In this document: positions 32,648 through 60,380 of the stretch, one piece after another
Position numbering within the stretch: the stretch's first letter is position 1
Layout: each line of letters starts with the position of its first letter
Origin: an uncultured Candidatus Saccharibacteria bacterium
Lineage (GTDB): Bacteria; Patescibacteriota; Minisyncoccia; UBA6257; 2-01-FULL-56-20
Assembly (NCBI GenBank): GCA_964416665.1
Contig: CAYQFA010000001.1
Coordinates: 40,082 to 104,081, forward strand
Length of the DNA: 64,000 nucleotides
Reading direction: 5' to 3'
Made by a program: the position numbers and the translations under genes
The notes under the pieces: model-generated
Told to the model about the DNA's origin: nothing
What the model saw: only the letters and a program-made list of their open reading frames with translations
Databases searched by the model: none

Positions 32648-33568
32648 ATGATGTACGACGTCATTATCATCGGTGGCGGTCCCGGCGGCATCGCTGCCGG
32701 GGTTTACGCTGCGCGAAAAAAGATGAAGACGCTCTTGATCACCGACAGTTTCGGCGGACAGTCGCTGACGTCCGCGGGGATCGAGAATTGGATCGGCATA
32801 AAATCGATCTCGGGCTACGACCTCGCGAAGATGCTTGAGGAACATTTGCGTGCGCAGCAGGGTATCGAGATCGTTGATAACGACCTTGTGAGCGGCGTCA
32901 CAAAAAAGGATGGCGGTTTTGATGTTGTTACAAAGGGTGGTAAAACGTTCGAGACGAAATACATCCTTATGGCTTCGGGGAGCAGGAGAAAAAAGCTCGG
33001 TATTCCCGGCGAAGCGGAATTTGACGGCAAGGGCGTGGTGTATTGCTCGACGTGCGACGCGCCGATCTTCGGCGGTAAGACCGTGGTGGTCGTAGGCGGT
33101 GGAAATTCTGCGCTCGAATCGGTCGTCGATCTTCTGCCCTATGCGTCAAAGATCTATTTGATGGTTCGCAGTGACGTCATGCGGGGTGATCCTGTCACGC
33201 AGGAAAAATTGAAGAGTCATCCGCAGGTGGAGATTCTTTTCAATGCGGCGCCGCAGGAAGTAATTGGAAAAGATTTTGTGACCGGTTTGCGCTACAAAGA
33301 CGCGAAGACCGGCGAGCAAAAGGAATTGGCGCTCGACGGCGTCTTTGTCGAGATCGGTCTCGTGCCGAATTCCGATTTTGTAAAAGACCTCGTGACGCTG
33401 AACGAATTTGGCCATGTGATCGTCGATCACAAAACACAGCAGACGTCCTGCCCCGGCATCTGGGCCGCAGGCGACGTAAGCGACGTGCTCTACGACCAGA
33501 ATAATATCTCCGTAGGCGACTCTATCAAGGCAGTGTTGAATATCTACGACAGGGTGAAGAAGGATTAG
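32648..33568 (+). CDS. trxB: thioredoxin-disulfide reductase-like FAD/NAD(P) oxidoreductase
   Basis: FAD site DVIIIGGGPGGIAAG, redox-active CSTC, NAD(P) site VVVVGGGNSALE, and C-terminal GIWAAGDV. Confidence 0.7.
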   Translation: MMYDVIIIGGGPGGIAAGVYAARKKMKTLLITDSFGGQSLTSAGIENWIGIKSISGYDLAKMLEEHLRAQQGIEIVDNDLVSGVTKKDGGFDVVTKGGKTFETKYILMASGSRRKKLGIPGEAEFDGKGVVYCSTCDAPIFGGKTVVVVGGGNSALESVVDLLPYASKIYLMVRSDVMRGDPVTQEKLKSHPQVEILFNAAPQEVIGKDFVTGLRYKDAKTGEQKELALDGVFVEIGLVPNSDFVKDLVTLNEFGHVIVDHKTQQTSCPGIWAAGDVSDVLYDQNNISVGDSIKAVLNIYDRVKKD

Positions 33569-33683
33569 GAACGCAAGGTACTCTTTGTTTTGGAGGTCGC
33601 GTCGTTTTCTGCTGAAAACGCGCTACGCCTCGGCGCCTACGCGCCTCCGGCATACCTCCAAAACAAAGAGTACCTTGCGTTCC
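33568..33683 (+). repeat. 116-nt compound palindromic element: perfect 29-bp inverted repeat enclosing two internal hairpins
   Basis: Outer arms GGAACGCAAGGTACTCTTTGTTTTGGAGG (33568-33596) and CCTCCAAAACAAAGAGTACCTTGCGTTCC (33655-33683). The interior contains CGTTTT-CTGCTG-AAAACG and a GC-rich hairpin. Starts at the last base of the trxB stop codon. Confidence 0.6.
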
Positions 33684-33752
33684 TAATCCTTCTTCAGTTA
33701 GCCAGAATCAAGATTAATCCCCAGAGGGAAAGCCAAATAGCAAGGGTACGCA

Positions 33753-33791
33753 CTTTTGCGGCCTGCTGCGAAGACGCAACGGCCGCAAAAG
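33753..33791 (+). repeat. conserved-loop hairpin family member A
   Basis: Stem CTTTTGCGGCC/GGCCGCAAAAG (11 bp); 17-nt loop TGCTGCGAAGACGCAAC. Confidence 0.6.
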
Positions 33792-33837
33792 CATGTGCCC
33801 TTGCTATTTAGCCCAACTTGATGTATCATAATCCATA

Positions 33838-37060: not shown

Positions 37061-37066
37061 AACAAC

Positions 37067-37139
37067 AAAACAACCCCACCCTCTTTTGAAAACCTGCTGT
37101 GCGGACACAACGGTTTTCAAAAGAGGGTGGGGTTGTTTT
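37067..37139 (+). terminator. pnp terminator; also conserved-loop hairpin family member B
   Basis: Perfect 28-bp stem AAAACAACCCCACCCTCTTTTGAAAACC/GGTTTTCAAAAGAGGGTGGGGTTGTTTT around loop TGCTGTGCGGACACAAC, followed by TTTTGTTTCTCTT. Confidence 0.65.
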
Positions 37140-37165
37140 GTTTCTCTTGTGCTAGAATAAAACAA

Positions 37166-50138: not shown

Positions 50139-50945
50139 ATGAAAAAAATCACCAAATTGGTACTGCCCATTGCCGGGCTCGGCAAACGCCTGCTTCCTCT
50201 TACTGCGATAACTCCAAAGAATCTCATTCCCGTGAATGGCAAACCCATTTTGGAGTATGTCCTTGAAGAGGCGGTTGCGAGCAAGATAAAAGAGGTGATA
50301 CTTATCATCAATCCCAAACACCTTAAGGATTTCAAGGCGTATCTTGCAAAGAACAAGAAGCGGTTTCCCACGCTTACGTTCCATATCCGCATCCAGGAAA
50401 CGCCGGGCGGAAATGGCCATGCGATCGCTCAGGCTTATGATCTCGTGAAAGGCGAGCCTTTCGCGGTACGTTTCTGTGATGATGTGCTTTCGGGCGAGCC
50501 GGCTGCACTTCCGGCGCTCCTTGAGATCTTCAAAAAATATCAGGCGTCGGTGGTGCTTCTGGAAGCGGTTCCCAAGGCTGATGTCTCGCGGTTCGGGGTC
50601 GTTGGGTTTGAAAAGGGGAAGGCGGCAACGGCCTCCTTCGCTGGCGGGACCATTTATAAAATAAACAAGATAATTGAAAAGCCAAAAACGAAAGACGCAC
50701 CTTCGAATTTGATCATCGTCGGCGGTTATGTGCTTACCCCGGACATACTCCGCAATCTAAAAATGGTTGCCGATACTTTGCCGGTCGTTGCCGACGATGC
50801 GTTGCCGCTCGCGGTGGCGCTGCAGATCGAATTGATCGTTAAGGGCAGAATTTATGGCTGGGAATTTCCCGGCAAGCGCCTTGATTGCGGCACGTTGGAA
50901 AAGTTGCAGCAAACGGAAGAATACCTGAGAAACAACAAGCAGTAA
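50139..50945 (+). CDS. galU: UTP-glucose-1-phosphate uridylyltransferase-like nucleotidyltransferase
   Basis: N-terminus KLVLPIAGLGKRLLPLTAITPKNLIPV and a GalU-like body. Confidence 0.65.
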   Translation: MKKITKLVLPIAGLGKRLLPLTAITPKNLIPVNGKPILEYVLEEAVASKIKEVILIINPKHLKDFKAYLAKNKKRFPTLTFHIRIQETPGGNGHAIAQAYDLVKGEPFAVRFCDDVLSGEPAALPALLEIFKKYQASVVLLEAVPKADVSRFGVVGFEKGKAATASFAGGTIYKINKIIEKPKTKDAPSNLIIVGGYVLTPDILRNLKMVADTLPVVADDALPLAVALQIELIVKGRIYGWEFPGKRLDCGTLEKLQQTEEYLRNNKQ

Positions 50946-51026
50946 TCCGGCAAAACAAAACAGTCCCTTTCCGGCTCGTGATGAGAATAATTCGCCGGAA
51001 AGGGACTGTTTTGTTTTGCCGGATTA
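50941..51026 (+). repeat. perfect 34-bp palindrome IR1 with an asymmetric 18-nt centre
   Basis: GTAATCCGGCAAAACAAAACAGTCCCTTTCCGGC - TCGTGATGAGAATAATTC - GCCGGAAAGGGACTGTTTTGTTTTGCCGGATTAC. The first arm contains the galU stop codon. Confidence 0.7.
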
Positions 51027-51089
51027 CTGCTTTATTTTCTTTAGGTTCTTCCGTTTGCTGCAACTTTATCTTTCCGGCAAAGCCATACG

Positions 51090-51179
51090 GCAATTGCAGG
51101 ATAGCAAGGAGAATGGCTTTCCGGCGAATTATTCTCATCACGAGCCGGAAAGCCATTCTCCTTGCTATCCTGCAATTGC
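51090..51179 (+). repeat. perfect 36-bp palindrome IR2 with the same 36-nt core as IR1 in opposite orientation
   Basis: GCAATTGCAGGATAGCAAGGAGAATGGCTTTCCGGC - GAATTATTCTCATCACGA - GCCGGAAAGCCATTCTCCTTGCTATCCTGCAATTGC. The centre is the reverse complement of the IR1 centre. Confidence 0.7.
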
Positions 51180-51181
51180 TA

Positions 51182-51190
51182 TGGTATAAT
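51182..51190 (+). promoter_or_regulatory. extended -10 element (TGGTATAAT) 6 nt upstream of the regulator ATG
   Basis: TGGTATAAT followed by CCGGCA-ATG. It is identical to the box upstream of recA. Confidence 0.4.
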
Positions 51191-51196
51191 CCGGCA

Positions 51197-51862
51197 ATGC
51201 TAGAGAACGGCAAGGATCGCTTTATTTTTACGAAATCTTATGAGATTGCTTACGCCTTGTTTCGTATGGCAGGGCAAATTGAAGAAAAGGATTTTTCCGA
51301 AAGGCTGAGGGTGCTTGGGGGATCGTTGCTTCAGGCTTCGGCAGGGCAGGATTACGTCGAGGCGAGCAAATCATTGCAAATGATCGAGTGTCTGGCAAAG
51401 TTCGCGGGAGATGTGAACATAATTAGCTCGGCGAACTCTAATATCTTCCTTGGGGAGATATACACACTCGATGCGGCAATTATAGAGTACCGCAATGCGG
51501 CAAATAACGACCGGCTGAACTTGTCGGATATCTTTTCCAAAACCGAACCGGAAGTGACCCCTCCGCCGGTGGTTTATGATAATCCGGCAAACAATAATCC
51601 GGCAATGGAAATTGCCGCAAGCGAGATGCCGGTAGCCGATAGTGCGGCAAATAATATGAAAGCGGAAATGCGGCAATCTACCATCGTGGAAAGAATCCGG
51701 CAATCCGGCAATTGCCGCTTGAAGGATATCAGGGAACTTTTGCCGGATACCAGCGAGCGGACCATCCGATATGACCTTCAATCCCTTCTCGAGAAGAACC
51801 TTATCGAGCGGGTAGGGGATGGAGGGCCGTCGGTGTTTTATCGGTTGCGGGAGTTGGCATAG
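51197..51862 (+). CDS. putative transcriptional regulator: N-terminal helical domain, low-complexity linker, C-terminal DeoR-type winged HTH
   Basis: The C-terminus STIVERIRQSGNCRLKDIRELLPDTSERTIRYDLQSLLEKNLIERV is DeoR-HTH-like. ATG at 51197; the track ORF starts earlier, inside the palindromes. The linker DNA carries the AATCCGGCAA repeats. Confidence 0.45.
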   Translation: MLENGKDRFIFTKSYEIAYALFRMAGQIEEKDFSERLRVLGGSLLQASAGQDYVEASKSLQMIECLAKFAGDVNIISSANSNIFLGEIYTLDAAIIEYRNAANNDRLNLSDIFSKTEPEVTPPPVVYDNPANNNPAMEIAASEMPVADSAANNMKAEMRQSTIVERIRQSGNCRLKDIRELLPDTSERTIRYDLQSLLEKNLIERVGDGGPSVFYRLRELA

Positions 51863-51916
51863 GGGCAGTTTCGGCGGTAACTTTTTATTTTCCGCCGCGT
51901 TGTATATAATGATTCA

Positions 51917-52026
51917 AGGTTCGGTGTGAGGCTGAACCGCCAGTGTTTTCCATTGATCGCAACCGCCTGTTTTTCGTAGTGGTATTGCGCTCATAATTCA
52001 GCCTCGCCCAAAAGCGAGTTTTTTCT
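51917..52026 (+). ncRNA. candidate ~110-nt small RNA or structured 5' leader upstream of the giant surface-protein gene
   Basis: TATATAAT -10 box at 51903-51910 (TATAAT hexamer 51905-51910). Internal hairpin GGTTCGGTGTGAGGCTGAACC. Intrinsic terminator CTCGC-CCAAAA-GCGAG followed by TTTTTTC at 52001-52026. Confidence 0.3.
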
Positions 52027-52205
52027 TTATTTAGCTATAACCCCGTTTTCTGCGCACTCTCCGTTTGCAACCCTCACTTGCGAATTGAGCGATGCGCCGG
52101 CAACGGCGCCCAGAATAAAATTGGTATACGGAAAGGTCGACGGCTAAAGAATTCGGAAAAGAATTCTTAGGTCGATAACTTAAAAAAATCGAAATAAAAA
52201 TTAAA

Positions 52206-55200
52206 ATGAGCATAAATAAAAAATTGGTTTCAGCAGTTCTTACTGCCACCACGATTTCGTGGGCGGTCGGTATCGCTGCGTTGCCTCTCGCTCAAGCACA
52301 GACCACGACGAGCCTTCAGTCTCAGATCGCAGCCTTGCTTGCGCAGATCCAACAGCTTCAGGGCCAATTGAATTCTTCGGGAACGCCGGCAATGGCGACG
52401 ACCTCGTATGCCTTCACCAAAAACCTCACAGTTGGTTCGAAGGGTGCGGACGTCACAGCGCTCCAGCAGATTTTGATCAATGGCGGATACTTGACAGCGG
52501 TCTCAGCTCCGACCGGATACTTCGGGTCAGCGACCCAGAAGGCTTTGGCGGCGTTCCAGGCTGCGAAGGGTATCACCCCCTCAGCAGGTTATTTCGGTCC
52601 TAAGACCATGGCGTATCTTGCGTCCAATGGTACGACGACCACAACGACGACGACAACCACGACAGGTGGTACGACGACCACAACGACGACAGGAACCGGT
52701 ACGACAGTTGTCGCTCCGGCAACTGGCATGTCGGTCAGCTTGGCTTCCACCAATCCGGCCGCCGGCTCTTTGATCTCAAGCGCAAGCGCGGGATCATCGC
52801 GCGTCCCGGTTTTGGCAGTGAGCTTCACTGCAGGAACCGCGGGTCCGGTAACCCTCTCTAGTGTGAGCTTCCAGAAGACTGGAGTTCTTTCTGATAGCGC
52901 AGTCGCTGGCGCCTACCTTACCCAGAACGGTCAGGTTCTCGCCCAGTACAACTCGCTTAACTCGGGCTTGTTGAGCTTCTCCGGTTTGAACTTGTCGATT
53001 CCGGCAGGTCAGACGGTAACTCTCACGCTCGCGATCGACGTTTCTGCAAATCTTTCCGCGGGTAACACCACTGGCTTCGCTTTAGAGAGCGCGTCGGCGA
53101 TTTCCGCGTTTGATAGCAATAACGCCGCGGTCACTCCGGCCGGTTCGTTCCCGTTGACGGGCAGTACCTTCACGGTGACGAGCGTAACGAATCCTTCCCT
53201 TGCATACGTGACGATCGCCTCGTCCTCAATTGGAACGACGGTGACGGCTGGTACGCAGGGAAACATCGTTGGTTCTTGGAACTTTACGGTGAACAACAGC
53301 CCTGTCTACCTTCAGAATCTTAACTTCCACGTTATTGGTTCCGCGAATGTCACGAACATTCAGAACGTGAAGTTGATGGTGAACGGTACGCAGGTTGGTC
53401 AGACATTGTCTTCGGTCCCGGCATCGGGCTTGGCCGACTTCAGTGCAACGGGTTCAGCGATCAAGTTGAACACGGGTTCGAACAATGTTCAGGTTGTGGC
53501 TGATGTCACAGGATCCCCGAGCGACTACTTCCAGTTCGAGATCTTGAACGGATATGACGTCTTGGCAATCGACAGCCAGTACAACGTCCCCATCTCGGTA
53601 ACGAACAATGGTGGCGTCGGTACGCAGGTTGCGATCCAGGTCGGTCAGATCACGATCAACCAGGATGCAAATACCCCGACGGGTAACATTGCAAAGGGCC
53701 AGTCCGCGGTAGTGTTGGCTAAGTACGACATCTACGCAGCGGGCGAGCCGGTCAAGGTGAAATTCCTCGACTTCAACATCGTATTGGGTGGTGCGAGCGG
53801 TCAGGCTCTCAGCAATGAGATCCAGAACGTCGCCATCACGGATGATGCGGGTAACCAGGTGGGCACCAGCATCAACCAGCCTCCGTCCAGCAATGTTTGT
53901 CAGGCTACGAACGCCGTTGCATCGTATAACACGGTCAGCGACACGTACTCCGACTGCTTTGGTACGCCGTCTTCGCCGATCAATTACATTGTTCCGGCGA
54001 ACACGACCCGCATCCTTAGCTTGAAGGCTGACATCCAGACTGGCGCGAGCTTCAATACCATCACTGCGAACTTGTCGGGTGATACCGGCAACTTGCAGGG
54101 TATGACGTCAAGCCAGATCGGTAACACCGCTGGTGCTACCGGTGTCTCCTTGACACTCGTTTCTTCGAGCTTGTCGGTATCTCAGAACAACGCTTTGGGA
54201 ACCCAGAGCGTCTCTGCTGGTACGACGAACCTCAAGATCGGTTCATATGCGTTCAGCGCTTCTTCGGCTGAAGGCGTAAATGTGAACACGGTCACCGTCA
54301 AACTCACCCCGGACAGCACCTTGTCTGCTTTCCAGAATCTCAAACTTTTTGTGAATGGAACGCAGTTTGGTACGACCCAGGGTGTGTTGAGCGGTGAGAC
54401 GAACTATGCGTTCTCTGGTACGGCGTTCAATGTTCCGGCCGGTCAGACCGTGAATGTTGACGTGTATGCCGACACCTTGTCCGCTGCAACGGGTACCTAC
54501 ACCCCTGCGACGAGCTTGGTTGGCTACTCGGGTACTGGCGCGACATCGTTCACTTCGGTGAACATTCCTGCCAACACCACGTACACTGGCCAGACGGTGA
54601 ACTTCAGCGGTCAGCCCGCCATCACGATTGCTGCAGACTCGAGCAATCCTCCGGCTGGTATCATCGTTCAGAACACCTCGGGCAATACGCTTGCGGTCTT
54701 CCGCTTCACGGAAACCTCGAACGTTGAGAACGTGAAAGTCACGCAGTTGAATGTCTTGGACAAAGTCCAGACGACCTCGCTTCTCGGAAATGGCCAGTCG
54801 AAGACCTTGGCCGCGTTCAGCAATGTCAGCTTGTGGAATGGTTCACAGGAACTCGGCACTGCCGCTTCGCCGGTCTGGGATGCTTCGAATGGCGGTTACG
54901 ACTACAACTTCAACAGCTTCACCAATGCGTTAGTGGTTCCGCAGGGCAATTCGGTCTCGCTCACCCTTAAGGGCGATGCAGGATCGTACACCAACGGTTC
55001 ACTCTCCGATAACACCACCTCGACCTTCGAGATCGTGCAAACGGGCGCTGGCAGCAACTATGTTGCTGCGACAGCGGCATCAAGCACCCTTACGGTCAAT
55101 ATGCCGTCATTGCTTGCTGCGGGTAACTACTCGTATTACGTGACTGTCAACGGAATAACGTCTCCGGCTCAGACCTTTACGGCTGCTGGCGTTTCGTCAA

Positions 55201-56036
55201 CTACAGATGCGACGACGTTGGCAAGTGACATCGTAACCACACTGACGGGGAACTTGTCTGCTTTCGGTCTTACCGGAGCGACGATTTCTTCCAGTGGTAA
55301 TGTTGTTACCATCGTTTCTACGCACACCGCAAGTTTGGGCGCTTCGGCTGCCCTCTGGGGTGCATCGACTGTTTCGATCGCGGCCGTTAACAACGCCGGT
55401 GCCGCTGGAAGCGGTACCGCAACCACGCAGAACGTGATTGCACGCGGTGCGACGTCGAACAAGACTGCCAATGTGGCGCTCTCAAATGCGACGGGTAACC
55501 CCCAGACCACTTTGAGGACGTTGCTCGGTGTAGCGGCGACCCCTGTGACCACCTTGCCTCCGGCAAGCTTCTCGCAGATCGGTTCGCTTACCTTCACCGC
55601 GAACAGTTCTGGTGATGCGGAGCTCAATAACTTGACGCTCACGTTCAACACCACGAGCACGGCGTTCATGAACACCGTAGCCTTGCATGACCCGAGCGGT
55701 AATGACATCTACACCGTCGACCACTTTGCGACCTCCACGGTTGCGACCTCCACGACCACTGCCACAGGCACAATCACGTGGGTGTTCGCTACATCAACCA
55801 ATCCGCTTGATGTGACCGCCGGCAGTTCGTACACCTTGTCGATCTGGGGCAATTTGGCGACGATCCCGACTGTCGCAAGTCAGGGTCTGTCCCTCACTGC
55901 AACGATTGTCAACAATACCGACTTTGGCTATCTTGATGGCTCGAGTGGTACTCCGGCATTGATCAACTTGACGACGAGTCAGGCAAATACCTTGACCCCT
56001 GTAAATCTACAGTCGGGTGCGGGCTTGCCTCTCTAG
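52206..56036 (+). CDS. giant secreted cell-surface protein: signal peptide, PG_binding_1 domain, poly-Thr linker, about 1100 aa of Thr/Ser/Asn/Gly-rich beta-repeat region
   Basis: N-terminal signal peptide; peptidoglycan-binding domain GSKGADVTALQQILINGGYL…GYFGSATQKALAAFQAAKGI; TTTTTTTTTTTGGTTTTTTTGTGTT linker; degenerate internal repeats (GQTVTLTLAIDVSANLSAGNT… / GQTVNVDVYADTLSAATGT…). Confidence 0.8.
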   Translation: MSINKKLVSAVLTATTISWAVGIAALPLAQAQTTTSLQSQIAALLAQIQQLQGQLNSSGTPAMATTSYAFTKNLTVGSKGADVTALQQILINGGYLTAVSAPTGYFGSATQKALAAFQAAKGITPSAGYFGPKTMAYLASNGTTTTTTTTTTTGGTTTTTTTGTGTTVVAPATGMSVSLASTNPAAGSLISSASAGSSRVPVLAVSFTAGTAGPVTLSSVSFQKTGVLSDSAVAGAYLTQNGQVLAQYNSLNSGLLSFSGLNLSIPAGQTVTLTLAIDVSANLSAGNTTGFALESASAISAFDSNNAAVTPAGSFPLTGSTFTVTSVTNPSLAYVTIASSSIGTTVTAGTQGNIVGSWNFTVNNSPVYLQNLNFHVIGSANVTNIQNVKLMVNGTQVGQTLSSVPASGLADFSATGSAIKLNTGSNNVQVVADVTGSPSDYFQFEILNGYDVLAIDSQYNVPISVTNNGGVGTQVAIQVGQITINQDANTPTGNIAKGQSAVVLAKYDIYAAGEPVKVKFLDFNIVLGGASGQALSNEIQNVAITDDAGNQVGTSINQPPSSNVCQATNAVASYNTVSDTYSDCFGTPSSPINYIVPANTTRILSLKADIQTGASFNTITANLSGDTGNLQGMTSSQIGNTAGATGVSLTLVSSSLSVSQNNALGTQSVSAGTTNLKIGSYAFSASSAEGVNVNTVTVKLTPDSTLSAFQNLKLFVNGTQFGTTQGVLSGETNYAFSGTAFNVPAGQTVNVDVYADTLSAATGTYTPATSLVGYSGTGATSFTSVNIPANTTYTGQTVNFSGQPAITIAADSSNPPAGIIVQNTSGNTLAVFRFTETSNVENVKVTQLNVLDKVQTTSLLGNGQSKTLAAFSNVSLWNGSQELGTAASPVWDASNGGYDYNFNSFTNALVVPQGNSVSLTLKGDAGSYTNGSLSDNTTSTFEIVQTGAGSNYVAATAASSTLTVNMPSLLAAGNYSYYVTVNGITSPAQTFTAAGVSSTTDATTLASDIVTTLTGNLSAFGLTGATISSSGNVVTIVSTHTASLGASAALWGASTVSIAAVNNAGAAGSGTATTQNVIARGATSNKTANVALSNATGNPQTTLRTLLGVAATPVTTLPPASFSQIGSLTFTANSSGDAELNNLTLTFNTTSTAFMNTVALHDPSGNDIYTVDHFATSTVATSTTTATGTITWVFATSTNPLDVTAGSSYTLSIWGNLATIPTVASQGLSLTATIVNNTDFGYLDGSSGTPALINLTTSQANTLTPVNLQSGAGLPL

Positions 56037-57042: not shown

Positions 57043-57123
57043 AGCAGGAGATTAGGTTGTGCCATTTTATGACCTGCTGCGCAGACGCAACGGTCATAAA
57101 ATGGCACGACCTAATCTCCTGCT
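57043..57123 (+). repeat. conserved-loop hairpin family member C
   Basis: 32-bp stem (one G-U pair) AGCAGGAGATTAGGTTGTGCCATTTTATGACC/GGTCATAAAATGGCACGACCTAATCTCCTGCT; loop TGCTGCGCAGACGCAAC. Confidence 0.65.
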
Positions 57124-57273
57124 TCTCGTCTTTGTAAGAGCGGGGAGCGTGGGGTAAGGAGAACCCCTTACCTCACACGACGAGCCCTCGTCGTTCAACG
57201 GATAGGACGCAAGATTGCGGATCTTGTAATCGAAGTTCGATTCTTCGCGGGGGCACAAAACAGAAAGACAAAA

Positions 57274-57410: not shown

Positions 57411-57482
57411 GCGGGTATCGTATAGCGGCTATTATGTAACCTTGCCAAGGTTAAGATACGGGTTCGACTCCCGTTACCCGCT
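57411..57482 (+). tRNA. tRNA-Gly(GCC); CCA not encoded
   Basis: Acceptor stem GCGGGTA/TACCCGC, anticodon loop TTGCCAA (anticodon GCC), T arm ACGGG-TTCGACT-CCCGT. Confidence 0.85.
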
Positions 57483-57484
57483 CA

Positions 57485-57579
57485 CAGACAGAACAAGCCA
57501 GAACAGAATACTCTTTTTCGACCTGCTGTGATTACACAACGGTCGAAAAAGAGTATTCTGTTCTGGCTTGTTTTGTCTG
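57485..57579 (+). repeat. conserved-loop hairpin family member D (39-bp stem), on the tRNA-Gly 3' trailer
   Basis: Arms CAGACAGAACAAGCCAGAACAGAATACTCTTTTTCGACC and GGTCGAAAAAGAGTATTCTGTTCTGGCTTGTTTTGTCTG. Loop TGCTGTGATTACACAAC. Starts 3 nt after the tRNA 3' end and is followed by a T-rich tract. Confidence 0.65.
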
Positions 57580-58471: not shown

Positions 58472-58479
58472 GATAACAT

Positions 58480-58537
58480 AAACACCCCCTTCTTCAAAAG
58501 CATTATTCTTATCATGCTTTTGAAGAAGGGGGTGTTT
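58480..58537. terminator. bidirectional intrinsic terminator between convergent EamA gene and glmS; overlaps the glmS stop codon
   Basis: Perfect 24-bp stem AAACACCCCCTTCTTCAAAAGCAT/ATGCTTTTGAAGAAGGGGGTGTTT with a 10-nt loop, flanked by an A-run on one side and a T-run on the other. Confidence 0.7.
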
Positions 58538-60380
58538 ATTCTACCGTTACCGATTTCGCCAGATTTCGTGGCTTGTCCACATCGCATCCGCGCGCGACGG
58601 CAACGTGATAGGCGAAAAGATAAACGGGGATCGCGGCGAGGATAGGCATGAGCGCCTCGTGGCAATCGGGGATAGCGATGACGTCGTCGGTCCAGGCGCG
58701 CAACTCGGCTGCGGCAGCGCCAGCGGTCGTGAGCGCGATGACCGGCCCGCCGCGCGCCTTCACTTCTTCGAGGTTCGATTTGGTTTTCTCGTAGGTCTTG
58801 TCTTGGGGAATGATAAAGAACGTCGGCGTCTGTGCATCGATCATCGCGATCGGCCCATGTTTAAACTCGCCCGCGGCGCACCCTTCGGCATGCAGATAGC
58901 CGACCTCCTTCAGTTTGAGCGCGCCCTCAAGCGCGATAGGGAAGTTGTGGTTGCGTCCGAGGAAGAACATGTGCTGGACATGCGCGTATTTTTCCGCGGT
59001 TGCTTTTATTGTCGGTTCCTGTTCGAGGACTTTTTTGAGGAGCATCGGCAGAAGTTCAATTTCTAAAGATATCTTTTCCGCTCCAACGGCGTTTTCGTTT
59101 TCGCGCCGCCGCGCCATTTCCGCTGTGATCAACGTGAGCACGGTGAGTTGCGAGATAAACGCCTTCGTCGAAGCGACGCTGATCTCCGGTCCTGCGTGGT
59201 TATAGATGACGGCGTCGGTTTCCCGCGCGATGGTCGATCCGACCGTGTTCACGATGCCGAGCGTGCGCGCGCCACGCCGCTTTGCTTCGCGGATCGAGGC
59301 CAGCGTGTCTGCGGTCTCGCCTGACTGCGAGATGGCGATGGCGAGCGTTTTGGGGCGGAGCGGCGCCTTCCGATAGCGAAATTCGGAGCCGATATCAACT
59401 TCGACGGGGATATTGGCGTAGGCTTCAAGAAGGTATTTCCCGACGTATCCCGCGTGCGCCGCGGTGCCGCAGGCGACGATCGTGATATTCTCGATATCAT
59501 GCATGGCTTCGACGGCTGCGCCGAGCGTTTTGCCGTTCGCGCGCAGCGCGTTCACGACCACATCCGGCGCCTCAAAGATCTCTTTGTGCATAAAATGAGG
59601 GTGGCCATTTTTTCCCGCGTCCTCGAGGGTGACGGTCAGCGTCCGTACCGCATGCTCAACCTTTTTTCCATCAAGCGTTTCGATGGCAAGATTACCAGCT
59701 CCGACTTCAGCGATTTCTCCGTCATCGAGATAGATGACTTTTTTGGTGCGACTTAGGATCGCCGATGCATCCGAGGCGATGATGTTCTCGCCGTCGCCCA
59801 CGCCGATGATGAGCGGGCTCGCGCTTCGCGCGCAGACGATCGTTTTCGGATCGTTCGCGGCGATCGCGGCGATCGCGTAAGTGCCGCGTATTTCTTTAAG
59901 GGCACGCTGTGCGGCGTGGAAGAGTCCATGCTCGTCGCCCTCGTCATCCTCCGATTTTTTGCGATGATATTTTTCGATCAGGTGCGCGAGGACTTCCGTG
60001 TCGGTGTCCGAAGAAAATCGGTGCCCGTCGGATATCAGGTCTTTCTTGAGCTCCGCATAATTTTCGATGATGCCGTTATGGACGACAAGAATGGTGCCGC
60101 TGCAGTCGGCGTGAGGATGCGCGTTCCTTTCTGACGGCGCACCATGGGTCGCCCAACGTGTGTGCGCAATACCGATATGGGCCTTTTGTGCGCCGCCGTT
60201 ATCGCTGAGCTTCGCTTCCAGATTTGCGACCCGTCCGGCGGCGCGGATCCAAAGAACTTTGCCGTCGGTTATCGCTGCGACACCCGCTGAATCGTAGCCT
60301 CGATATTCAAGCCGCTTCAAACCGTCCACCAGAATGGGGATCACGTTCTCGTCGCCGATGTAGCCGATGATGCCGCACAT
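58536..60380 (-). CDS. glmS: glutamine--fructose-6-phosphate aminotransferase
   Basis: N-terminal MCGIIGY (Ntn glutaminase), two SIS domains, and C-terminal …KSVTVE. The ATG at 60380 gives the canonical Cys2 start; the track ORF starts 8 codons upstream. Confidence 0.9.
   Translation of the reverse strand: MCGIIGYIGDENVIPILVDGLKRLEYRGYDSAGVAAITDGKVLWIRAAGRVANLEAKLSDNGGAQKAHIGIAHTRWATHGAPSERNAHPHADCSGTILVVHNGIIENYAELKKDLISDGHRFSSDTDTEVLAHLIEKYHRKKSEDDEGDEHGLFHAAQRALKEIRGTYAIAAIAANDPKTIVCARSASPLIIGVGDGENIIASDASAILSRTKKVIYLDDGEIAEVGAGNLAIETLDGKKVEHAVRTLTVTLEDAGKNGHPHFMHKEIFEAPDVVVNALRANGKTLGAAVEAMHDIENITIVACGTAAHAGYVGKYLLEAYANIPVEVDIGSEFRYRKAPLRPKTLAIAISQSGETADTLASIREAKRRGARTLGIVNTVGSTIARETDAVIYNHAGPEISVASTKAFISQLTVLTLITAEMARRRENENAVGAEKISLEIELLPMLLKKVLEQEPTIKATAEKYAHVQHMFFLGRNHNFPIALEGALKLKEVGYLHAEGCAAGEFKHGPIAMIDAQTPTFFIIPQDKTYEKTKSNLEEVKARGGPVIALTTAGAAAAELRAWTDDVIAIPDCHEALMPILAAIPVYLFAYHVAVARGCDVDKPRNLAKSVTVE

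Follow-up and report, generated by a model that had tools for sequence, protein, structure and literature searches.

The decanucleotide AATCCGGCAA forms a dense array in and around a single regulator gene in a 64-kb stretch of DNA from an uncultured Candidatus Saccharibacteria bacterium (contig CAYQFA010000001.1), called the window below. Judging from its sequence context, this word, with the consensus aAT[C>G,T]CGGCAA[T/A], is probably recognized by a sequence-specific DNA-binding protein, the most probable binder being the winged helix of the gene's own product. The original prediction for this stretch, that the repeats form an operator array with possible autoregulation, was essentially right, and the case for it has become stronger with the conservation of the word in orthologous loci and the evidence for selection at the nucleotide level. 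The gene is organized as follows:

51197-51862, plus strand: regulator gene encoding 221 residues, with an Avd/S23-like four-helix bundle (residues 5-104), a disordered linker (about 115-147) and a C-terminal DeoR-type winged helix (148-217).

Seven exact copies of the 10-mer were found in the window, six on the plus strand (starting at 50944, 51188, 51581, 51596, 51694 and 51702) and one on the minus strand (51016). All of them lie within 50944-51711 (approximately 770 bp), and the remaining window contains none. The original prediction had recognized this clustering but counted six copies, the overlapping one at 51702 having been overlooked, and its coordinates were right within one base (50943 and 51693 correspond to 50944 and 51694). 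Its estimate that less than one copy would be expected by chance agrees with 100 dinucleotide-preserving shuffles of the window, in which the word occurred 0.34 times on average and at most twice. The near-copies that it listed are present, but the listing was incomplete, as 17 CGGCAA cores lie between 50944 and 51749. GCGGCAA near-copies start at 51473, 51497, 51644 and 51670 on the plus strand and at 51612 and 51712 on the minus strand, and further near-copies are TATCCGGCAA (minus strand, 51740), TTTCCGGCAA (51071), CATACGGCAA (51084) and AGAACGGCAA (51204). With up to two mismatches allowed, 18 sites were counted in the 970 bp of the locus against 88 in the other 63 kb. Both palindromes named earlier are real, CGGCAATTGCCG occupying 51705-51716 and GGCAAT-GGAA-ATTGCC occupying 51601-51616. 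Note that a single long inverted repeat (50900-51067) holds the 50944 copy in one arm and its mirror image, the 51016 copy, in the other, so that the pair counts as one independent site. The sites are distributed in the following manner (hairpins 1 and 2 are described below):

50944-50953, plus strand: exact copy in the left arm of hairpin 1, across the stop codon of the NTP-transferase (GalU-like) gene upstream.
51016-51025, minus strand: exact inverted copy; right arm of hairpin 1, mirror of the 50944 copy.
51071-51102, plus strand: near-copies between the hairpins, namely TTTCCGGCAA (51071) and ATACGGCAATTGCAGGAT (51085-51102), the latter with two mismatches to the 18-bp head-to-head palindrome.
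51188-51197, plus strand: exact copy that spans the predicted transcription start, reaching from within the -10 hexamer to the A of the ATG.
51204-51213, plus strand: near-copy AGAACGGCAA in codons 3-6 (E-N-G-K), with GAATCCGGCAAA as its counterpart in orthologues.
51470-51503, plus strand: pair of near-copies at the end of the bundle domain, GATGCGGCAA (51470, codons D-A-A-I) and AATGCGGCAA (51494, codons N-A-A-N).
51581-51676, mixed strands: linker cluster, with exact copies at 51581 and 51596, a minus-strand copy at 51612-51621 and near-copies at 51641 and 51667.
51694-51749, mixed strands: cluster in the winged-helix-coding part, with tandem exact copies at 51694 and 51702, offset by 8 bp and encoding I-R-Q-S-G-N.
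51712-51721 and 51740-51749, minus strand: copies of the same winged-helix-coding cluster, the former a head-to-head partner, the latter TATCCGGCAA, which encodes L-P-D.

The word was followed in 32 orthologous loci from species-representative genomes (34-56% protein identity). Counting of enriched 8-mers in the gene and the 300 bp upstream gave ATCCGGCA, TCCGGCAA or AATCCGGC as the top-enriched words in nearly all 32 loci; in a few lineages their place is taken by the variants ATGCGGCAA or ATTCGGCAA. The pattern AT[CGT]CGGCAA was found at 293 sites in 33 loci, or about nine in each; the flanks (324 kb) have 0.086 per kb, so that the loci are enriched approximately hundred-fold. The density of the core hexamer in the loci is 9.4 times that of the flanks. 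Across orthologues, the number of copies per gene ranges from about 9 to 16. More than 50 loci were examined, and all of them had both the gene and the motif. In two orthologous loci, L016 and L033, the stop codon of the preceding gene likewise carries an equivalent copy, and the site at the end of the bundle domain (+274) was found again in many orthologues.

The matrix derived from 520 cores, a-A-T-[C>G,T]-C-G-G-C-A-A-[T/A], is asymmetric and about 10-11 bp long. Sites occur singly, as 8-bp tandems, head-to-head and tail-to-tail, with irregular spacing; tandem pairs in the 8-bp register number 73 within the loci versus 2 outside, and the head-to-head palindrome CGGCAATTGCCG numbers 66 versus 4 (each counted on both strands). 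This asymmetry and variety of forms, together with the resemblance of the bundle to pentamer-forming Avd/S23-like proteins, lend no support to the half-sites of a dimeric protein that had been proposed originally. The overall layout is kept, with a promoter group oriented '- - +' and a 3' group of 5-16 sites, in which a run of plus copies is followed by '- -'.

Outside the regulator loci, no cluster of at least three cores within 60 bp was detected in 496 kb of fetched loci, except in L019, L048 and L059; the first is a coding coincidence in a galU-like gene, and the other two are truncated regulator loci. A dispersed repeat (repetitive extragenic palindrome, bacterial interspersed mosaic element, miniature inverted-repeat transposable element or uptake sequence) was rejected in view of the lack of exact copies in the other 63 kb and the low density in the flanks, and the 10-mer is not common anywhere in the 64 kb or the flanks.

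That selection on the motif acts on nucleotides and not on peptides is strongly supported by frame usage and codon usage. The in-gene copies of the window are in different codon phases, as originally stated, N-P-A being in frame and I-R-Q and S-G-N representing the other two phases, and the plus-strand copies in orthologous genes are spread over the three frames in the ratio 65/64/59. The linker is length-variable and unalignable among orthologues, whereas the bundle and the winged helix align well. It is nevertheless present in the orthologues and always carries the word, and it is word-rich in nearly all of them, which results in recurring NPA, PAI, IRQ and SGN peptides. In columns with invariant residues (30 orthologues), synonymous codons are mixed everywhere but under the motif. 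In control columns, Tyr codons were divided 15/13 and Glu codons 17/12, and Leu and Arg were spread over four to six codons. The columns under the motif were as follows (predominant codon, its count and its background frequency):

Arg168: CGG, 27/30; background 0.19.
Gln169: CAA, 30/30; background 0.30.
Ser170: TCC, 28/29; background 0.23.
Gly171: GGC, 30/30; background 0.45.
Asn172: AAT, 30/30; background 0.39.
Leu182: TTG, 27/28; background 0.20.
Pro183: CCG, 28/29; background 0.52.
Arg159: CGG, 25/30; background 0.19.
Gln160: CAA, 25/28; background 0.30.
Gly5: GGC, 28/28; background 0.45.

Additionally, Lys6 is encoded by AAA in 22 of 27 orthologues. The binomial P values under the motif range from 1e-7 to 1e-18 per column, while the control columns are unremarkable. 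The contrast is visible even for one amino acid, as Gln179, located outside the motif ten codons after Gln169, uses the common CAG in 23 of 27 cases, whereas Gln169 and Gln160 use the rarer CAA. Since the control columns are synonymously saturated, shared ancestry does not explain the codon freeze. Antisense in-gene copies, such as TTGCCGGAT encoding L-P-D, are likewise frozen, and the conservation of both orientations fits recognition of double-stranded DNA. A protein-level repeat is ruled out by the frame usage and the codon test, and the claim that the repetition exists at the DNA level has been borne out.

The promoter copies tie the word to transcription of the gene. Most orthologues carry upstream the arrangement ccTTGCAA-TTGCCGGATTGCCGGAT-TATAAT-N7-8-ATG, in which the 17-nt spacer between the -35 and -10 hexamers consists entirely of two tandem inverted motif copies; codons 3-6 (E-S/T-G-K), written as GAATCCGGCAAA, form a further copy, and more copies lie over the transcription start. 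Of the best-conserved copies, which lie between the -35 and -10 hexamers, 46 are on the minus strand and 7 on the plus strand. A -10-like hexamer is located 6-9 nt ahead of the ATG in nearly all loci, so close that a leaderless messenger RNA (mRNA) is implied. Moreover, a scan of Joint Genome Institute (JGI) metagenomes for the 23-mer TTGCCGGATTGCCGGATTATAAT returned 23 contigs, and all 23 matches were positioned 7-8 nt before the ATG of a regulator orthologue. The corresponding element of the window is the following:

51162-51190, plus strand: predicted sigma-70-type promoter, with TTGCTA at 51162-51167, a 17-nt spacer and a TG-extended TATAAT at 51185-51190, 6 nt before the ATG.

It agrees with a sigma-70 promoter at 10 of 12 positions and has the TG, a better match than any other sequence within 50700-52300, and is homologous to the orthologue promoters with the spacer TTGCCGGATTGCCGGAT or TCCGGCAATTGCCGTGC. 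Its own spacer contains a degenerate motif copy, TATCCTGCAA (51166-51175). The closest relative lacking hairpin 2 (L035, 82%) reads TTGCTA-TCCGGCAATTGCCGTGC-TATAAT-GCGGCA-ATG. Operators over the gene's own promoter are thus represented by the spacer and start copies in orthologues and by the exact copy over the -10 hexamer and ATG in the window. Sites saturating the RNA polymerase footprint of a winged-helix gene are the classical signature of autorepression. These orthologue promoter copies, together with a promoter module found solely ahead of this gene in the metagenome scan, support the operator array and possible autoregulation suggested at the outset.

The proposed binder is a protein of uniform architecture. 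Pfam detected a DeoR-type winged helix-turn-helix (HTH; PF08220) at residues 159-206 with E=4.7e-9 and a score of 36.3 bits (cut-off 21), and the NCBIfam models GlpR/SrlR/AgaR align to the regulator over their HTH portion only. The DeoR_C sugar-phosphate sensor domain had no match in the regulator, the HTH sits at the C-terminus and the N-terminal domain is a four-helix bundle. The regulator is therefore not a canonical member of the DeoR family and has only the DNA-binding module in common with it. In structural modelling of the monomer, the N-terminal domain was superposable on Avd/S23 structures (PDB 4dwl, 8ub7, 2rld and 2gsc). Homologues numbered 344 in one search and 478 clusters at 50% identity with E<=1e-10 in another, and the named records were metagenome-assembled genomes of Paceibacterota, Parcubacteria or Minisyncoccia. 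The recognition-helix region SERTIRYD is invariant among orthologues, as is the CGGCAA core. A search of the available literature returned nothing relevant on such a regulator from the candidate phyla radiation (CPR), on such a motif or on Avd-HTH fusions, and the protein family combining an Avd-like bundle with a winged helix is uncharacterised. Two orthologous open reading frames (ORFs; L010, 5001-5714, and L027, 5001-5652) are broken within the motif-rich linker, which may reflect natural variation by frameshifting at the repeats or an assembly error.

Taken together, these data point to the following mechanism as the most probable. Bound to the promoter copies in the spacer, over the -10 hexamer and start, and in codons 3-6, the protein would keep RNA polymerase out and thereby silence its own leaderless transcript. 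The larger cluster 380-550 bp downstream, in the linker- and HTH-coding parts, might add avidity through cooperative or looping contacts or might act as a roadblock to elongation; the loop distances of the Lac and DeoR systems are comparable. Such sites would be written into the coding sequence both through a tolerant disordered linker (NPA, IRQ and SGN) and through fixed codons at invariant residues. The simplest explanation for their presence in coding DNA is that intergenic space is short in these genomes. Asymmetric monomer-sized sites of variable spacing and orientation, a flexible linker and a bundle resembling that of a pentamer suggest a multivalent oligomer that would gain affinity from several nearby sites.

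A more far-reaching version can be offered only tentatively, and we regard it as rather doubtful. A multivalent Avd-like, possibly pentameric factor would have its own gene as the principal or only high-affinity target, and the coding sequence, above all the linker, would serve as a scaffold of oriented monomer sites for a polar nucleoprotein complex. DNA-level selection would then dictate part of the "invariant" residues (IRQSGN, LPD and SGK), and gene and product would form a co-designed machine across a large CPR radiation.

The autoregulatory operator array as such is a known kind of element, and the unusual features here are its density, its embedding in all three frames of its own gene and its polarity. 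Several repressors act by looping between multiple operators, including DeoR (O1/O2/O3), LacI (O1-O2 in lacZ), GalR (OE-OI in galE) and PurR (operators past its own start). By analogy with Escherichia coli DeoR and other looping repressors, the regulator locus would combine a promoter operator with auxiliary operators hundreds of base pairs away, some of them in coding DNA, with bridging by an oligomer as proposed here, and the HTH itself is of the DeoR type. In contrast to those repressors, which have two to three operators, 9-16 sites are present here, in all three frames of the gene's own coding sequence and with frozen codons; unlike DeoR, the regulator carries its HTH at the C-terminus, has no sugar-phosphate sensor domain and is associated with asymmetric monomer-sized words instead of 16-bp palindromes. 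The tandem 8-bp register (ATCCGGCA-ATCCGGCA-A), the variable copy number and a presumed cooperative occupancy recall the met-boxes of MetJ, but MetJ is a ribbon-helix-helix dimer with palindromic boxes at many promoters, whereas a winged helix, mixed arrangements and a single locus are seen here. Many direct and inverted repeats beside or inside the gene of their binder could likewise be compared with ParR-parC, the omega heptads, TubR-tubC and ParB-parS in spo0J/parB, and plasmid centromere arrays double as autoregulatory operators. Those arrays differ from the present one, which has no partner nucleoside triphosphatase (NTPase) gene, is irregularly spaced, lies partly in a coding sequence on a chromosome and is conserved across a class of CPR bacteria. 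Finally, the regulator departs from the Avd/S23 family in that its bundle has no Pfam sequence match and continues into a linker and a winged helix.

With experimental knowledge of gene regulation in CPR/Patescibacteria close to nil, the locus is of value as a testable pairing of a protein with a DNA word, conserved in hundreds of lineages (the 478 clusters). As a natural example of overlapping codes it is unusually clean, the linker peptides (NPA, IRQ and SGN) being apparently set by selection on DNA. If the Avd-like bundle does multimerise, this would be a different way of reading clustered, asymmetric and irregular sites, and it would tie the poorly understood S23/Avd-like family to DNA regulation.

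Several observations weigh against autorepression by a multivalent product of the gene. The copies within orthologous genes are biased to the sense strand (188:52), most strongly in the linker (65:6), whereas the core hexamer is distributed 286:223 in background ORFs (Fisher P=7e-10 for the linker), and such polarity is not predicted by a plain double-stranded operator model. It could result from the birth of sites by local duplication, from a polar assembly or roadblock, or from a role at the RNA level; general coding bias was discarded as its source because of the background ratio. No second target has been seen in the 64 kb and the approximately 10-kb flanks sampled, and a regulator of itself alone would be odd. 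In the window, both the double site and the 18-bp palindrome (each with up to three mismatches) were found at the regulator locus only, with no pair of good sites elsewhere. A perfect 18-bp palindrome, ATCCGGCAATTGCCGGAT, about 90 bp past the regulator stop in L031/L032, is the only possible extra target observed. Furthermore, the spacer copy in the window is degenerate (ATCCTGCAA), its promoter having been rebuilt by hairpin 2. As to the oligomer, Avd forms a homopentamer, and on the basis of fold similarity in the models the regulator possibly does so as well. Yet the first 150 residues gave no Pfam match and no four-helix-bundle family at E<=0.01, the family of 23S rRNA-intervening sequence protein bundles (PF05635) included.

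The strand bias leads directly to the possibility that the functional unit is RNA, the sense word AAUCCGGCAA in the mRNA being bound by a protein, possibly by the Avd-like domain, or paired with antisense copies, and controlling translation or stability of the leaderless mRNA. Avd contacts RNA within the diversity-generating retroelement (DGR) complex, and the minus-strand copies could pair with the plus-strand ones. We consider this quite improbable, however, given that the best-conserved copies are antisense (the 46 against 7 given above), lie between -35 and -10 and are upstream of the predicted start, that antisense in-gene copies are codon-frozen too, that the protein's conserved module for binding nucleic acid, a winged helix of DeoR type, reads double-stranded DNA, and that no Rfam family covers the region. 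Only two transfer RNAs (tRNAs) were identified by Rfam over the window, and a permissive search of 50850-52300 added sub-threshold microRNA-precursor-like matches to both hairpins on both strands, which are generic hairpin hits and do not denote a family. Neither a reverse transcriptase nor a DGR was noticed near the regulator. A neutral origin, in which a short repeat multiplied within a low-complexity linker by slippage or duplication and codon choice was left to chance, would also produce orientation bias by local duplication and would agree with the tandem 8-bp copies, the runs spaced by 12 bp in L017, the turnover of sites between close relatives and the two orthologue ORFs broken in the linker. 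It is nevertheless extremely unlikely, as ten columns are frozen at P<=1e-7 while neighbouring invariant residues vary in their codons, the word persists at 34% protein identity in orthologues that are not near-identical at synonymous sites (see the control columns), and copies hold fixed positions in non-coding promoter DNA.

The binder itself might be a different DNA-binding protein encoded elsewhere, with the regulator gene as its main target, because the motif is tied to this protein by association in the genome, and both the helix and the motif are invariant, leaving no co-variation to compare. The co-occurrence of gene and motif in all of more than 50 loci and the location of the array within the coding sequence of a DNA-binding domain make this very unlikely, self-recognition being the more economical assumption. 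Another function for the same protein would be that of a chromosomal landmark, in which the array serves as a loading or nucleation site for a large nucleoprotein complex (centromere or partition site, condensin-loading site or titration locus), as parS does inside parB/spo0J. A very high site density (9-16 per kb) in the only cluster of the sampled DNA, arrays of opposite orientation ('- - +' at the promoter and a plus run followed by '- -' in the 3' part) and a putatively multivalent protein would suit such a site, and plasmid centromeres typically consist of direct and inverted short repeats (ParR/parC, omega and TubR/tubC are the textbook cases). Against it stand the lack of an adjoining partition NTPase (ParA, ParM or TubZ), the irregular spacing and the absence of a GC-skew switch, and the exact overlap with -35, -10 and start is better explained by repression. 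A landmark is thus unlikely, although the two roles would be compatible, and the recombination or partition sites mentioned as an alternative in the original prediction find no support, given the same lack of a neighbouring partition NTPase and of a skew switch. An iteron-type origin, expected to have regular direct repeats of 17-22 bp and a skew switch, was rejected as the sites measure 10-11 bp and are irregularly spaced. A replication origin or terminus was likewise rejected, there being no GC-skew inflection near the locus and the cumulative skew rising monotonically through 48-54 kb. Autorepression through the operator array remains the preferred reading.

The 250-bp spacer upstream of the regulator gene holds two giant hairpins:

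50900-51067: hairpin 1, with 22-nt outer arms (100% complementary), 53-nt inner arms (89% complementary) and an 18-nt centre.
51090-51179: hairpin 2, with perfect 36-nt arms; its 18-nt centre is that of hairpin 1 in reverse complement.

The RNA fold of 50895-51200 has a predicted energy of -204 kcal/mol (z=-25). The -35 hexamer of the regulator promoter and most of its spacer come from the right arm of hairpin 2, and the left arm is their inverted copy. Both hairpins have a 36-nt core, CTTTCCGG-CTCGTGATGAGAATAATTCG-CCGGAAAG, in common in opposite orientations; this identical core, CTTTCCGGCTCGTGATGAGAATAATTCGCCGGAAAG, is located at 50967-51002 and 51117-51152, in the flip and flop states at the centre of each hairpin. 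In L033, hairpin 2 has kept its outer stem, with its inner stem and tip replaced by a different core; taken with the flip and flop states of the shared core, this suggests an exchange or insertion of small palindromic cassettes at the tips of hairpins. L035 lacks hairpin 2. Hairpin 1 is extended by an inverted duplication, at 51022-51067 past the stop codon, of the final 46 coding nucleotides (50900-50945) of the NTP-transferase (GalU-like) gene, and this extension is missing from L033.

Other long near-perfect hairpins (29-43-nt arms) are situated at gene ends at 33555-33696, 33732-33812, 37064-37142, 57043-57123, 57485-57579 and 58478-58539. A common tip, CC-TGCTGYG-NNNN-CRCAAC-GG (17-nt shared tip), was found in four long hairpins, with full pairing (including G-U pairs) on the minus strand only. 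The same tip is inverted in L033 (3932-3952) and absent from the other fetched loci scanned; the tip motif CCTGCTGYGNNNNCRCAACGG was consequently rejected as a widespread element, being found only in the window and its closest relative. The stems of the tip hairpins are mutually unrelated, as if a small conserved core had been enlarged into each palindrome by copies of the neighbouring sequence. The hairpins are a separate, lineage-specific phenomenon of terminator-like palindromes growing by flank copying, which has partly rebuilt the regulator promoter. Two tRNA genes, at 57184-57255 and 57411-57482 (Rfam 56.8 and 60.2 bits), are bracketed by the tip-motif hairpins at 57043-57123 and 57485-57579.

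An unrelated perfect hairpin with 28-30-bp arms ends just upstream of the regulator -35 in each of three distant orthologous loci, L016 (4887-4956), L019 (4883-4949) and L020 (582-661). In the L016 and L019 loci no other long hairpin was found, whereas L020 has three more inside the gene (1159-1235). This upstream hairpin may be a strong terminator insulating an autoregulated leaderless promoter.

The neighbouring genes encode ClpB, an unannotated membrane protein, the NTP-transferase (GalU-like) and a PG_binding_1 protein, and synteny is kept in L033 and L035. The intergenic region 51863-52205, between the regulator and the 1276-residue PG_binding_1 protein, is 91% identical in the window, L033 and L035. 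Features recognized in it are a promoter-like TTGTATATAAT (51900-51910), a hairpin (51918-51938), a terminator-like stem with a T-run (52003-52028) and a GNRA-capped hairpin (52094-52109); an Rfam search of this region returned no match, and it is a candidate for a small RNA combined with a structured leader. The giant threonine-rich surface protein with the peptidoglycan-binding domain follows the regulator in the window (52206-56036), L033 and L035, and its orthologue is present even in the distant L032 (1842-5813).

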